NCBI GenBank assembly: GCA_001803185.1
Contig: MHBB01000138.1
Span: 4,160-68,159 of the forward strand
DNA from: Legionellales bacterium RIFCSPHIGHO2_12_FULL_35_11
GTDB taxonomy: Bacteria > Pseudomonadota > Gammaproteobacteria > Legionellales > Legionellaceae
Length of the DNA: 64,000 nucleotides
Direction: 5' to 3'
This document shows, piece after piece, positions 15,001 to 18,000 of this stretch; the stretch's first letter is position 1, and every line of letters begins with the position of its first letter. The position numbers were made by a program.

Positions 15001-18000
15001 TTTAGCCATGATTTTCTCCTTTTAAATAATCAATCAAATATTCTTTGCGTAAATAAAAAAAAGGGAGTTCCCTTAGGCCTTTTTTACAAATTGAGATTTT
15101 AATTTCATTGCGCCAATACCATCAACTTTACAGTCAATATCATGGTCGCCTTCAACTAATCTAATATTTTTTACTTTAGTCCCAACTTTTATAACTAATG
15201 AAGAACCTTTAATAGGTAAGTCTTTTATAACTGTGATTGTATCTCCGTCTTGTAAAACGTTACCGTGTGCATCTTTGACTATACGTGCTTCAGTTGGTTC
15301 TACTACTGTTTGATCCCATTCATTTGCGCATTCAGGACAGATAAAAAAATCACCATCTTTATAAGTATATTCTGAGTGGCATTTTGGGCAGGATGGTAAT
15401 GTGCTCATATATGTAATCCTAATTGGTATTTTGATTATCCTAGTTATCTAAAGCTAAATACTCTTTTGTTCCAATTATTTGTTCTCTTTCACTAAAAGAG
15501 GTTAATTGTTCTGCTACAGATTCACTATTGCCATCATTATATATGGCTTTAAGAGTTTTTTGTATTGCTTTAATAGCCGCTCTTTGCAAATCAGACGGAA
15601 TAATAATTAAATTATATCCAAGTTCTTGAAGTTTACTGGTAGAAACCATAGGAGTTTTTCCGCCTTGGAACATATTAATTAGTTTTGGTGTAGTAATTTC
15701 TTTAGCGATTTGTTCGATTTGCTCAATTGTTTCTGGAGCCTCTACGAATATCATGTCTGCCCCGGCATTTATATAAGCTTTTGCCCGTTCAAGTGCGCTT
15801 TTAAAACCTTCAACTGCAATGCCATCAGTTCTAGCGATAATCATGAAATCAGGATTTACGACACTTTGTTTTGCGACCGTTAATTTTTTACACATTTCAT
15901 GTATTGGTATTAAAGATTTATCGCTTAAGTGCCCGCAACGTTTTGGAAATGTTTGATCTTCCAAATGTAACCCTGCCACTCCAACTCGCTCATAAGTTTC
16001 GATTGTTAGTTTAACGTTTAAAACATTTCCAAACCCAGTGTCAGCATCAGCAATAACTGGTAAATTAGTTACATTTACAATGTGCGATAATACGTTGCAT
16101 ATATCTGTCATAGTCAGCAAACCAAGGTCTGGATAGCCAGTACTTCGAGCAATTGCTCCCCCGCTAGCATATAAAACAGAAAAGCCTGCTTGTTTTGCTA
16201 GTAATCCAGATAATCCGTCGTATATTCCTGGAGCTATAATAGTTTTCCCAGAATTAATATAGTTGCGTAATAATTGTGCTGCATTCATTTATTGTTATTC
16301 TCCAAGTCCAGATAAAGCATTCTCCGGTGCTAATTTACTGCATGTAAACTCCGAGCTCAACTGCTTTTTCTAGGGTTATAATCCTAGCCAGCGAATAAAT
16401 TGATTTGTTGCGGTTAATTGAATAGCCGAAAAAGTTGAAAAATGAATTATATACTTATTTGCCGTTGGATTTTCTATCATGCTAATTGATGTAATCTCTG
16501 GATGAGATATAAATTCCATTTGCGTTGTGTAATAGCCTCTTTGCATTTTGATAGTTGGTATAACGAAGTGTAATTCATCTAAAATATTTGGATTAAGATT
16601 ACGAATTTCTGGTTTAGTTATTAATGCTTCAAGATTTTGATTTGTTAGCGCTATATACTCATGGCCATTTATCCTTCGACGAAGCATTCTTTTTAAAGGC
16701 GGAGATTGATTAAATGTTTTTTTATATAGATCAGCTTCTAGTACTAAGATAGCAGTGTCTTTTCCAAATTTGCCAAAATAAACATATTCACGTGGTATCA
16801 AGTCTTGATTTAGCGGTTTTATAATTTCAGGATTAAGTTCGGCTTTATGTGTACAATTTAAAAATCGTGATTTACTAAACCAGCTATCGCTTGGATAATA
16901 CATAACAATTAAAGAATTATCTTTAATTGTTTCAATTATTGGTTTTGCTATAGAAAGAGGCAAGGCAGGGCATCCCCAACTTCTACCAGAACGACCATAT
17001 TTTTTTATGAAATCAGCACTCATATACCAGCCACCATGCATCACAATATAACGGTTAGAGGCATTATCATTAAAACTATAATCGAGTCCTTGTAATCTTA
17101 AAGACCTACCCTCTCTGCCATAGTATGCTTGTTCAGTTCTATAGACTCCAAGGCTTGTTGCTTTTGAGTCGTATTTATTTGAAAAATAATCTGTTAGAAG
17201 AGTTCCAGAGGAAATTCCATGGCCAACATAAGTGTGGTAGAGCAATTTATTTTTTTCCAAATCAAATACCCATAATCGTTTTTGATTAGATGGTAGTGAG
17301 TAGTCAATAACAGTTAAAATTTGATTATGGCTTATATTATATTTATCAACACATTCTAAAGAAACAACTACCTTATCAATTACATCTTGATGTAAATCTG
17401 TAGTTGTATTTTTTAGGGTATACATTAGATTTGCGCTGTTAGATTGAGAATAAAGTTTTTCTAAAACTGTGTCTCTCATTGATATGAGTTTATGTTTTAA
17501 AAGAGGATCATGTAGAGCGCTCTTGATGGTTAATAAATTGGGGTAAGATGGTGTATATAAATTTAATACGCTGGCTAGCATTAAAGACAAATATGCGGTC
17601 ATAATTTACTCTAAGCTGTTTGTTTATTCTATTGTTATGTAAGTTATAGTCTATTTTTGTAAAAAAAACAGGCGAACTGTAATTTTTACTACTAAAATTA
17701 AATTAACGTTAATGGTTTTGGGGGAAGTATGAAAAAGATAAGAATTGCTTTGTTTGCAATTTTAAGCGGGCTTTTAGTTATTTCAACAAATAGTTTTGCA
17801 TATGACGATAAAAATTGCCCAGAAAAAAGTTTTTGCCAAGATTGTTTTAACAAGTGCCATATAAATCCAGTGCAATGTCCGGAAAGTTGTGATGCTTGCA
17901 AGGGATGTTTAAATAAATATGGGCAATAAGCATTCGTAGTAGAGCTCAACTGCTTTTTCTAGGTTTAATGGGACATGTTGCCCAAAGTTGGGTGCGTTGA

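Follow-up and report, generated by a model that had tools for sequence, protein, structure and literature searches.

A 66-codon open reading frame in a 64-kb stretch of DNA from Legionellales bacterium RIFCSPHIGHO2_12_FULL_35_11 (hereafter the window) is, as judged by its conservation in relatives, a real gene for a small, cysteine-rich peptide with a predicted export signal. By the sequence searches described below, the peptide belongs to a lineage-restricted orphan family of four members, found in uncultured Legionella relatives and on one short contig. Structure prediction suggests that the mature peptide is probably a helix-turn-helix hairpin stapled by disulfides. The full explanation that we favor, a Sec-exported mini-protein of this kind whose surface acts as a ligand, inhibitor, or toxin, stands in our judgment at an even chance of being right.

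The peptide and its gene

The open reading frame begins with an ATG at the earliest possible start downstream of the preceding stop codon (position 17729) and encodes the precursor MKKIRIALFAILSGLLVISTNSFAYDDKNCPEKSFCQDCFNKCHINPVQCPESCDACKGCLNKYGQ (Table 1). All four members have a Shine-Dalgarno-like sequence, which in the three homologues takes the form GGAG or AAGGAG 5 nt ahead of the ATG (alignment A3). The eight cysteines of the predicted mature part are spaced by 5, 2, 3, 6, 3, 2, and 2 residues. Cysteine makes up 19% of this part, which contains three CxxC and two CxxxC motifs, located on helix faces in the predicted structure.

An earlier reading made from the sequence alone (the sequence-only reading) had described the open reading frame, the purine-rich run before it, and a 42-amino acid part with eight cysteines, and each is found in the sequence as claimed. 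Its description of two related modules is fair, as both halves open with CPE and both contain CxxC; the modules are too short for a duplication to be demonstrated, and a cross-module tblastn match (E 0.02) is the sole hint of one. Its remark that genes this small are often missed by annotation does not apply to this gene, which NCBI carries as 'hypothetical protein A3E88_00120, Legionellales bacterium RIFCSPHIGHO2_12_FULL_35_11'. No paralogue of the gene was found within the window.

Table 1. Coordinates of the peptide gene, its predicted parts, and its neighbors in the window.
Feature	Position	Strand	Basis or remark
YkuD_2 L,D-transpeptidase gene (EnhA-like), 408 aa, divergent neighbor	16376..17602	-	Pfam PF13645, E 2e-62
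Shine-Dalgarno-like purine run GGGGGAAG	17720..17727	+	1 base ahead of the peptide-gene ATG
66-aa precursor CDS	17729..17929 (stop codon included)	+	ORF list; homologues P0002, P0004, and P0006
Predicted Sec-type signal peptide, residues 1–24, MKKIRIALFAILSGLLVISTNSFA	17729..17800	+	Rule-based check; cut predicted after Ala24
Predicted mature peptide, 42 aa, 8 Cys, predicted helix-turn-helix	17801..17926	+	Alignment A2; AlphaFold2
Module 1, C30–C43, CPEKSFCQDCFNKC, C-x5-C-x2-C-x3-C	17816..17857	+	Predicted helix 1
Module 2, C50–C60, CPESCDACKGC, C-x3-C-x2-C-x2-C	17876..17908	+	Predicted helix 2
Solo end of genome-specific MITE-like repeat, GCATTCGTAGTAGAGCTCAACTGCTTTTTCTAGG	17930..17963	+	Starts right after the peptide-gene stop codon
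Promoter-like site for trxA, TTGAAT-17-TATAAT	17997..18025	+	Identical hexamers and spacing in L028
trxA	18070..18396	+	Pfam thioredoxin, E 3.6e-30; starts 140 nt after the peptide gene

The element that the sequence-only reading called a CTAG-TIR is, by sequence comparison, a solo end of a MITE-like repeat and not part of the peptide gene. The coding region could not be aligned to the interior of the MITE-like element, and the repeat is missing at this position in relatives. The possibility that the 3' end of the gene is itself part of the repeat was rejected, as the coding region gave no alignment with full elements and the homologues lack the repeat.

A four-member family

An exhaustive HMMER search of 1.84 billion proteins returned three small homologues (P0002, P0004, and P0006; E-values 3.9e-11, 1.8e-8, and 1.6e-6), which are 65–73 amino acids in length and have the same signal-like N-terminus. 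The longer matches from this search (P0003, P0005, P0007, P0008, and P0009) are repeat adhesins or low-complexity proteins and were rejected as homologues; P0003, P0005, and P0009 contain HYR_4C or CshA repeats and matched through summed weak stretches.

The four members have the cysteine pattern C-x5-C-x2-C-x3-C-x6/7-C-x3-C-x2-C-x2-C in common. P0006 has one additional loop residue, and the spacing is otherwise identical in all four. Cysteines are nearly the only conserved residues. Those invariant in the alignment (A1) are, in module 1, C30, P31, K33, C36, C39, and C43; in module 2, Q49, C50, P51, E52, C54, C57, and C60; and the alanine at position −1 of the predicted cleavage site.

Of the six frames, the sense frame alone runs uninterrupted in every member; each of the other five has stops in at least some homologues. 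In five of the six pairs, mismatches are more numerous at third positions than at first and second ones. The sequence-only reading had proposed conservation of the frame in relatives, with a Ka/Ks below 1, as a test. The frame, the eight cysteines, and their spacing are kept in all four members, and dN/dS (NG86) is 0.22–0.66 in the pairs for which it could be computed, but dS is saturated. The overlapping antisense 83-amino acid open reading frame, which that reading had dismissed, is indeed not conserved, with two stops in L001 and one in L030.

Searches beyond these four members were negative. A word-indexed search of proteins gave nothing outside the family, whether the query was the single sequence or a four-sequence profile; a look-up of contigs encoding the window protein returned none; and no relatives of the peptide appeared in a JGI metagenome scan, an IMG/VR scan, or a tblastn search of plasmids. 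Among 27 EnhA-like loci from Legionella species and metagenome-assembled genomes, tblastn with the peptide matched L001 only; in true Legionella species, the searched loci around the EnhA-like gene contain no copy of the peptide gene beside it. Pfam, NCBIfam, PHROGs, and PADLOC provided no meaningful match to the family: at E-values up to 10 no Pfam-A model matched any of the four members save for an irrelevant match to TMEM215, there were no PHROG or PADLOC matches with E < 0.1, and there were none in NCBIfam. A profile search of PDB sequences yielded only a chance match to ubiquitin (E 2.1). A literature search for a described small, cysteine-rich secreted peptide of Legionella found fungal and plant effector papers only.

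Predicted fold and proposed maturation

The structure of the mature peptide was predicted with AlphaFold2, using the four-sequence alignment as input. The model (mean pLDDT 78.7) is a helix-turn-helix whose helices span mature residues 9–21, 28–33, and 37–41, and the cysteines are located on the facing sides of the helices. Confidence is higher over the cysteine-bearing core (pLDDT 82–88), and in a model of the full-length precursor it is 82–86 across residues 31–60. We regard the helical hairpin as predicted with moderate confidence. A Foldseek comparison of both models with the PDB gave nothing below E 6, that is, no similar solved structure. The mature peptides of the four members have only 3–10 hydrophobic residues and net charges of −1 to +1. 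With so few hydrophobic residues, cross-links or metal would therefore be needed for the fold. A cationic, membrane-active antimicrobial peptide was ruled out by the net charge.

In the explanation that we favor, the precursor would be targeted by a classical Sec signal peptide and cut by signal peptidase I after Ala24. The 42-amino acid mature peptide would fold outside the cytoplasm into the helix-turn-helix hairpin, with a Cys-Pro-Glu cap starting each helix and the eight invariant cysteines, where the two helices face each other, taking the place of a hydrophobic core. In the oxidizing periplasm these would most likely be joined, like the rungs of a ladder, by up to four disulfides between the helices (C43–C50, C39–C54, C36–C57, and C30–C60); the CX3C...CX3C core known from alpha-hairpinin and twin-CX3C hairpins would lie within this pairing. 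The resulting mini-protein would be rigid and resistant to proteases. Its surface, which is variable, polar, and roughly neutral, may be its working face, and the peptide may serve as a ligand that binds a target, as an inhibitor, or as a toxin, either in the periplasm or extracellularly. We infer the signal cleavage, the formation and pairing of the disulfides, and the ligand-type role. The ligand or toxin step is the weakest part of this explanation because sequence and context point to no target.

Closely packed CxxC and CxxxC motifs are just as characteristic of metal sites formed by thiolates, which counts against a disulfide reading. The alternative to be taken most seriously, although we consider it unlikely, is that the cysteines stay reduced and the peptide is a periplasmic thiolate binder of Cu(I), Zn, or Cd, either alone or as a dimeric, cysteine-lined four-helix bundle. 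Such a peptide would act as a metal buffer of the envelope and might shield the divergently encoded, cysteine-dependent L,D-transpeptidase from copper, by which L,D-transpeptidases are reportedly inhibited (Peters et al. 2018, as cited in PMC12729407). The cysteine content and the motifs on the helix faces are consistent with this, as are the basic or acidic residues that flank the cysteines, the near absence of a hydrophobic core, and the position of the gene, divergent from the L,D-transpeptidase gene in three of four genomes. However, Sec export of an unfolded cysteine-rich chain into an oxidizing periplasm favors disulfides. Known periplasmic copper binders use mostly methionine and histidine, and neither is conserved among the four members; cysteine-lined Csp1 is exported already folded by the Tat pathway, and no member has in its N-terminus the RR pair of the Tat motif (S/T-R-R-x-F-L-K). 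The Pfam library, which we take to include models for bacterial metallothionein, Cox17/CHCH, small Tim, and Csp (DUF326) proteins, gave no match to any of these at E-values up to 10, and neither did NCBIfam. No conserved operator for a metal regulator, or of any other kind, was found upstream of the peptide gene, where conservation is limited to the Shine-Dalgarno sequence and a block beside the start of the transpeptidase gene. Moreover, the transpeptidase gene occurs without the peptide gene in L002 and L003, and the peptide gene occurs in another context in L030.

A ferredoxin-type 4Fe-4S site (C-x2-C-x2-C-x3-C-P, in a cytoplasmic or Tat-exported protein) was also considered and rejected: the spacings differ, proline follows the first cysteine instead of the last, the N-terminus is a Sec-type signal, and there is no match to Pfam Fer4.

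Predicted export signal

Signal peptides were called by rules only, namely a positively charged n-region, a hydrophobic h-region about 7–15 residues long, and, at −3 and −1, residues that are small and uncharged. The window peptide has a net charge of +3 in residues 1–6, a 12-residue hydrophobic core (residues 7–18, mean KD 2.8), and S-x-A at −3/−1 ahead of Y25. Across the four members, the net charge of the n-region is +1 to +3 and the best 12-residue KD mean is 2.2–2.8. The residue at −1 is alanine in all four; that at −3 is S, S, or C in three members and leucine in P0006. By these rules all four N-termini fit a Sec signal cut by signal peptidase I, apart from the leucine at −3 in P0006. 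This rule-based check supports the proposal of a Sec-type signal followed by a cysteine-rich mature part, and the signal remains a predicted one. There is no conserved lipobox ([LVI][ASTVI][GAS]C at the end of the signal). The window peptide and P0002 have no cysteine in residues 1–24, and the signal-region cysteines of P0004 (SANC) and P0006 (LGAC) are not conserved, that of P0004 fitting no lipobox. The number of cysteines in the predicted mature part is even, eight, in all four members. Proteins exported by Sec pass through the membrane in unfolded form and are oxidized by DsbA in Gram-negative periplasms, and even cysteine counts are favored in the exported proteins of such organisms.

The leucine at −3 of P0006 counts against the cleavage step, as it makes a poor signal peptidase I site. 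It fits instead with a signal anchor, in which the hydrophobic segment is left uncleaved and holds the cysteine-rich hairpin at the inner membrane, on its periplasmic side. All four members have one hydrophobic segment, of about 14–18 residues, within which I18 and S19 are invariant. We nevertheless consider anchoring improbable: the alanine at −1 is invariant, the −3 residue is small in three of the four members, and, as is usual for signals that are cleaved, a polar c-region comes after a short hydrophobic core.

Comparison with known cysteine-rich peptides

The peptide resembles the alpha-hairpinins of plants in its likely architecture, without being a member of that family. The alpha-hairpinin 4C motif, C-X3-C-X4-20-C-X3-C, specifies a helix-loop-helix with two disulfides; the motif is loose, and the authors who describe it caution that unrelated cysteine motifs can contain it (PMC11591084). 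The segment C39-x3-C43-x6(7)-C50-x3-C54 fits this published motif in all four members (PMC11591084). A helix-loop-helix is predicted for the bacterial peptide too, a CX3C...CX3C is embedded in its pattern, and in both groups the cysteines are almost alone in being conserved. The plant peptides occur in 4C, 6C, and rare 8C forms, whereas the peptide described here has eight cysteines and is CPE-capped and near-neutral. Its extra cysteines lie 2–5 residues outside the core (two for C36, C57, and C60, and five for C30), as compared with 1–3 in plant 5C and 6C variants. The plant precursors are vicilin-like or multi-module, unlike the single-module Sec precursor of a bacterium found here, and alpha-hairpinins (PDB chains and Pfam models) have no sequence similarity to the peptide family.

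In biosynthesis, a parallel is provided by the heat-stable enterotoxins STa and STb of E. coli. These have precursors of about 70 amino acids with a Sec signal, mature parts of fewer than 50 amino acids, and folding that depends on periplasmic disulfides; STb is helical, and neither type needs dedicated maturation genes. The gene described here is likewise without partner genes. STb has four cysteines and STa six, in contrast to eight here, and the enterotoxin genes are borne on plasmids or transposons, whereas the peptide gene lies between housekeeping genes. None of the four members matched the STa or STb families (Pfam at E-values up to 10; PDB sequences).

Small Tim proteins, Cox17, Csp1, and Csp3 are helical hairpins or bundles with cysteines at i and i+3 or i+4 lining the helix interface, where they serve as disulfide staples or Cu(I) thiolate ligands, in an oxidizing extracytoplasmic compartment. 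Unlike the peptide described here, the twin-CX3C and CHCH proteins are eukaryotic and reside in the intermembrane space, and the Csp proteins are four-helix bundles, either cytosolic or exported by Tat. The peptide is half the size of these proteins, and its loop has only six or seven residues.

Glycocins such as sublancin and glycocin F are bacterial helix-loop-helix peptides with nested disulfides. The small size, cysteine richness, and predicted helix-loop-helix of the peptide recall them, and would suit the precursor of a ribosomally made bacteriocin or a RiPP (SCIFF/ranthipeptide or glycocin), with an N-terminal leader and with cysteines modified by dedicated enzymes (thioethers or S-glycosylation). 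Glycocins, however, come from Gram-positive bacteria, have a double-glycine leader, and are encoded together with a dedicated S-glycosyltransferase, thiol-disulfide oxidoreductases, and an ABC exporter, all of which are lacking here. The N-terminus is instead of the Sec type; no radical-SAM enzyme, glycosyltransferase, immunity gene, or ABC exporter is present beside the peptide gene in the four loci; and the PHROG, PADLOC, and NCBIfam searches offered no support. This reading is already disfavored, and we give it very little likelihood.

Genomic neighborhood

The sequence-only reading had placed the gene divergent from an EnhA-like gene and 140 nt upstream of trxA, with a repeat end directly after its stop codon, and all of this was seen. 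The slot divergent from the YkuD_2 gene is used by the peptide gene in three of four genomes (the window, L001, and L028/L029), and two of the three homologues sit in it. The flanks of the window gene and of that in L028 consist of the L,D-transpeptidase gene, trxA, and the gene for thiamin pyrophosphokinase (TPK). In L001, umuD/umuC-like genes are inserted between the peptide gene and trxA. The context in L030 is different: the neighbors are a dGTPase-like gene fragment, GNAT, and IS, there is no adjacent trxA, and the L030 genes matched nothing in the other loci or the window. In L002 and L003 the YkuD_2-trxA-TPK arrangement is kept and the peptide gene is absent.

These arrangements tell against the link to thioredoxin that the sequence-only reading had entertained in naming a redox substrate as one possible role. 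If the peptide gene were co-transcribed with trxA and its product interacted with the neighboring thioredoxin as redox partner or substrate, this would account for the two genes lying close together on the same strand in both the window and L028, but we see scarcely any likelihood in it. The conserved promoter-like site makes trxA likely to be a separate transcription unit, and TrxA is cytoplasmic while the peptide has an export signal. Nor was conserved co-transcription or co-occurrence, as expected of membership in a trxA operon, observed: other genes come between the two in L001, they are unlinked in L030, and only trxA is present in L002 and L003. As far as gene order can tell, the position of the peptide gene beside thioredoxin looks incidental, and we take both the L,D-transpeptidase gene and trxA as positional context, not partners.

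Because its homologues were detected at E-values of 3.9e-11 to 1.6e-6 and two of them occupy the same genomic slot, the gene is more than a product of chance. A chance open reading frame in AT-rich DNA, though suggested by its shortness, its lack of a Pfam or NCBIfam match, and the presence in the window of seven other stop-free stretches with at least six cysteines, has a negligible probability. Sequence conservation already refutes it, as the frame, start context, signal-like N-terminus, and eight cysteines are kept in four divergent sequences (39–51% amino acid identity), and each of the other five frames is interrupted in at least some homologues.

Implications

Judged by their sequences, the eight-cysteine peptides form an orphan family that is neat but narrow. 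Bacterial genomes are still poorly charted where small exported proteins are concerned, and here a 'hypothetical protein' becomes part of a defined four-member family with an invariant eight-cysteine signature and a testable fold. If the fold is as predicted, a 42-residue hairpin with four disulfides would be a compact and very stable scaffold that could interest peptide engineers.

Two bolder possibilities can be raised, which we hold to be doubtful. With this peptide, the alpha-hairpinin and twin-CX3C hairpins may have a first counterpart that is bacterial and exported by Sec, held by four stapling disulfides and serving as a stable extracellular effector or toxin of amoeba-associated Legionellales; or the peptide may be a copper-buffering periplasmic 'metallothionein' that shields the neighboring cysteine-dependent L,D-transpeptidase. 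Either, if true, would establish a class of small envelope proteins that is functionally new for the Legionellales. Binding of copper by the peptide would represent an unusual cysteine-based periplasmic metal buffer tied to cell-wall cross-linking, and action on hosts or competitors would add to the biology of the Legionellales a type of effector that is independent of secretion systems.

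The Peptide Gene and Its Family

The peptide gene starts with ATG and encodes MKKIRIALFAILSGLLVISTNSFAYDDKNCPEKSFCQDCFNKCHINPVQCPESCDACKGCLNKYGQ. The purine run GGGGGAAG ends one base 5' of the ATG, and the stop-free stretch upstream contains no other start. Both the small ORF and its purine-rich run had been described correctly in the sequence-only reading. That reading had added that genes this small often escape annotation. This one did not, since it already has the entry 'hypothetical protein A3E88_00120 [Legionellales bacterium RIFCSPHIGHO2_12_FULL_35_11]'. This entry was the sole match of the peptide in a word-indexed protein search. 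The surrounding DNA is ordinary chromosomal housekeeping DNA with a G+C content of ~35%.

An exhaustive HMMER scan of 1.84 billion representative proteins identified three small homologues: P0002 (65 aa, E 3.9e-11, 50% identity to the window peptide), P0004 (73 aa, E 1.8e-8, 44% identity), and P0006 (70 aa, E 1.6e-6, 46% identity). The remaining matches, long repeat-bearing adhesins or proteins of low complexity, arose from weak stretches added together and were rejected as homologues. No further members were found by profile search, scans of JGI metagenomes and IMG/VR, or plasmid tblastn. The family is very small, with four members, all in uncultured organisms.

All eight cysteines are invariant in the four-way precursor alignment, as are M1, K2, I18, S19, A24 (the -1 residue), P31, K33, Q49, P51, and E52. 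Cysteine spacing is the same throughout, with the sole exception of one additional loop residue in P0006, and an SD-like motif lies 4-5 nt 5' of the homologous ATG in all four members. No frame but the sense frame stays open in every member. The antisense frame, an 83-aa ORF in the window previously said to lack such features, is broken by two stops in L001 (the locus of P0004) and by one in L030 (the contig of P0006). The third codon position differs more than the first and second in five of six member pairs. NG86 dN/dS was 0.22, 0.56, and 0.66 in the three pairs with computable dS, the other pairs being saturated. Frame conservation in relatives and, in those three pairs, a Ka/Ks below 1, both proposed as checks in the sequence-only reading, were observed, and at the level of sequence the coding status of the ORF is settled.

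Features of the peptide locus and of related loci (window coordinates unless a contig or locus is named)
Feature	Position	Strand	Remarks
Peptide ORF	17729..17929	+	from sequence of 17400-18500 and ORF list
Purine run	17720-17727		
YkuD_2 L,D-transpeptidase (EnhA-like) gene	16376..17602		divergent from peptide gene; Pfam 2e-62
trxA	18070..18396		Pfam scan
Thiamin pyrophosphokinase gene	18419..19090		Pfam scan
PhnA/YjdM zinc-ribbon and PEP-mutase/isocitrate-lyase-family genes	15073-16288	-	adjoining, just past EnhA-like gene
trxA promoter-like site	17997-18025		TTGAAT-17-TATAAT
Conserved block 5' of EnhA-like gene	17636-17672; L028 ~2240-2275; L001 ~5925-5965 (-)		
Repeat copies	6488-6507, 13912-13939, 16353-16380, 17930-17969, 18391-18410, 21086-21140, 27353-27372, 37821-38023, 61442-61625		
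Two MITE-like elements	37821..38023; 61442..61625		~185-200 nt; inward-facing ends of ~34 nt
Inverted repeat around trxA	17950-17969 / 18391-18410		20-nt arms, 95% complementary, 421 nt between arms
Hairpin version of repeat	21086..21140		directly 3' of smpB stop; perfect 14-bp stem CCTAGAAAAAGCAG / CTGCTTTTTCTAGG, 15-nt loop, then T-rich run
umuDC-like insertion in L001	JARGPO010000080.1, 3620-5508	-	Peptidase_S24 gene and IMS-family polymerase gene
Neighbors of fourth homologue, L030	1170-3183		truncated DUF4143 gene, GNAT acetyltransferase gene, DDE_Tnp_1 transposase gene

Gene Order in Relatives

The divergent EnhA-like gene and the downstream trxA are present as previously described; PhnA/YjdM, PEP-mutase-family, PIN-PhoH, and SmpB genes lie farther away. 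The PhnA/YjdM and PEP-mutase/isocitrate-lyase-family genes could form a phosphonate-related pair in a Legionellales MAG. Some 35-70 nt 5' of the EnhA-like gene start, three genomes share a conserved block, TAAGTTATAG(T/C)C.AT..T.G..AAAAA, the probable promoter or 5' leader of that gene. Nearer the peptide gene, this intergenic region has no conservation except the SD.

Scanning the EnhA-like neighbor against one genome per GTDB species yielded 27 loci. By tblastn these contained one syntenic copy of the peptide, P0004, divergent from the EnhA-like gene in the Legionellaceae MAG locus L001 (EnhA-like protein 61% identical). Two short Logan contigs carrying P0002 (L028/L029) have exactly the window order: divergent YkuD_2, peptide, trxA, and thiamin pyrophosphokinase genes. 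In L001, Peptidase_S24 (UmuD/LexA-like) and IMS-family (UmuC-like) genes separate the peptide gene from trxA, an insertion that breaks an order conserved elsewhere. In L002 and L003 (EnhA-like proteins ~50% identical), only 205 and 273 nt lie between the YkuD_2 gene and trxA, with neither peptide gene nor remnant. The other EnhA-like loci, including those of true Legionella species, have neither a trxA match nor a peptide copy beside the EnhA-like gene. The context of P0006 is different, with a dGTPase C-terminal fragment before the peptide gene and a DUF4143 fragment, GNAT, and IS transposase genes after it. These downstream neighbors hint that rearranged or mobile DNA can harbor the gene.

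The trxA gene has its own promoter-like site, and L028 has identical hexamers and spacing. Together with the relatives' gene orders, this marks the peptide gene as accessory: one sub-lineage either acquired it between the EnhA-like gene and trxA or lost it from there. No functional meaning can be demonstrated for the adjacency to trxA, the more so since TrxA resides in the cytoplasm and the peptide is predicted to be exported. Of the earlier interpretation, the small, predicted exported Cys-rich gene is real; the relation to thioredoxin lacks support, as does the suggestion that the gene was unannotated. The L,D-transpeptidase association, seen in three of four loci, may be just inherited synteny.

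A Dispersed Repeat

The CTAG-TIR end directly 3' of the peptide gene belongs to a repeat with the core CTGCTTTTTCTAGG. The 20-mer CTGCTTTTTCTAGGTTTAAT occurs 11 times in the window at up to three mismatches (0.03 expected), and the longer form GAGCTCAACTGCTTTTTCTAGG seven times (0 expected). The sequence common to two MITE-like elements amounts to ~55 nt at one end and ~25 nt at the opposite one. Solo ends occur directly 3' of three stop codons, those of the peptide, EnhA-like, and trxA genes. These create the inverted repeat that brackets the whole of trxA, its arms being two outward-facing copies. This arrangement, absent around trxA in L028, may have arisen because the repeat prefers to insert at gene ends, or it may act in a terminator-like way; the hairpin after smpB looks like an intrinsic terminator made from the family. 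The repeat was not found at corresponding positions in related loci and does not align with the peptide coding region. It is a genome-specific MITE/REP-like family, unrelated to the identity of the peptide.

Predicted Signal Peptide and Fold

The Sec signal claimed earlier has the expected anatomy in a rule-based check: residues 1-6 carry a net charge of +3, residues 7-18 form a hydrophobic core (mean Kyte-Doolittle 2.8), and Tyr25 directly follows S-x-A. The 42 residues after Ala24 contain the eight cysteines claimed, with spacings of 5, 2, 3, 6, 3, 2, and 2. None of the four proteins is recognized by a profile in Pfam (E up to 10), NCBIfam, PHROGs, or PADLOC, and a PDB sequence profile search with the family had no match.

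AlphaFold2 models were built on four-sequence alignments. In the full-length model the signal region is of low confidence, pLDDT is 82-86 over residues 31-60, and helices lie at 33-45 and 52-57. In the mature-only model (mean pLDDT 78.7), helices span mature residues 9-21, 28-33, and 37-41. Foldseek found no similar solved chain for either model, a common outcome at such peptide size. An invariant Cys-Pro-Glu appears to open each predicted helix as a typical N-cap, and the inter-helix loop would be a short (H/K)xNPxQ turn. Cys 36/39/43 and 50/54/57 are spaced i, i+3/i+4, which would place each set on one helix face. Each of the four mature peptides contains just 3-10 hydrophobic residues, at a net charge of -1 to +1; the cysteines would therefore form the core.

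The alpha-hairpinin motif, C-X3-C-X4-20-C-X3-C, forms a helix-loop-helix held by two nested disulfides; plant variants with six and, rarely, eight cysteines have been described (PMC11591084). The embedded C39-x3-C43-x6-C50-x3-C54 of the window peptide satisfies this motif, which is loose, as its authors warn (PMC11591084).

Proposed Product

Given the Sec signal, the even cysteine count, and the periplasm, which is oxidizing for exported proteins and supports DsbA-dependent folding, the most economical model for the exported peptide would be a hairpin cross-linked in ladder fashion by as many as four disulfides, putatively C43-C50, C39-C54, C36-C57, and C30-C60. We give roughly even odds to the product being a disulfide-stapled, ligand-type mini-protein. 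The family diverges fast: its members are 39-51% identical, compared with identities of 82% in the neighboring TrxA and ~60% in the EnhA-like protein. Its combination of an unvarying scaffold and a polar surface that varies resembles that of disulfide-rich ligands, inhibitors, and toxins. No target was revealed in any analysis.

The main rival, a thiolate metal binder, is rather unlikely. Dense CxxC/CxxxC motifs are suggestive of it, as is the divergent L,D-transpeptidase gene, copper being reportedly an inhibitor of such enzymes (Peters et al. 2018, as cited in PMC12729407). However, Sec export leads into an oxidizing compartment, neither His nor Met is conserved, metallothionein, Cox17, and Csp profiles are unmatched, no metal-regulator site is recognizable, and presence/absence patterns uncouple the peptide and L,D-transpeptidase genes. 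An uncleaved, membrane-anchored form is less probable still, and other alternatives are minor. Among these, a RiPP or bacteriocin precursor is argued against by the absence of maturase, immunity, and exporter genes in four different contexts. That absence would fit a product requiring Sec and Dsb alone, as suffices for the heat-stable enterotoxins of E. coli. The peptide represents an orphan family, unmatched in sequence and in fold, but its kind is already familiar, that of a small Sec-exported disulfide-rich peptide.
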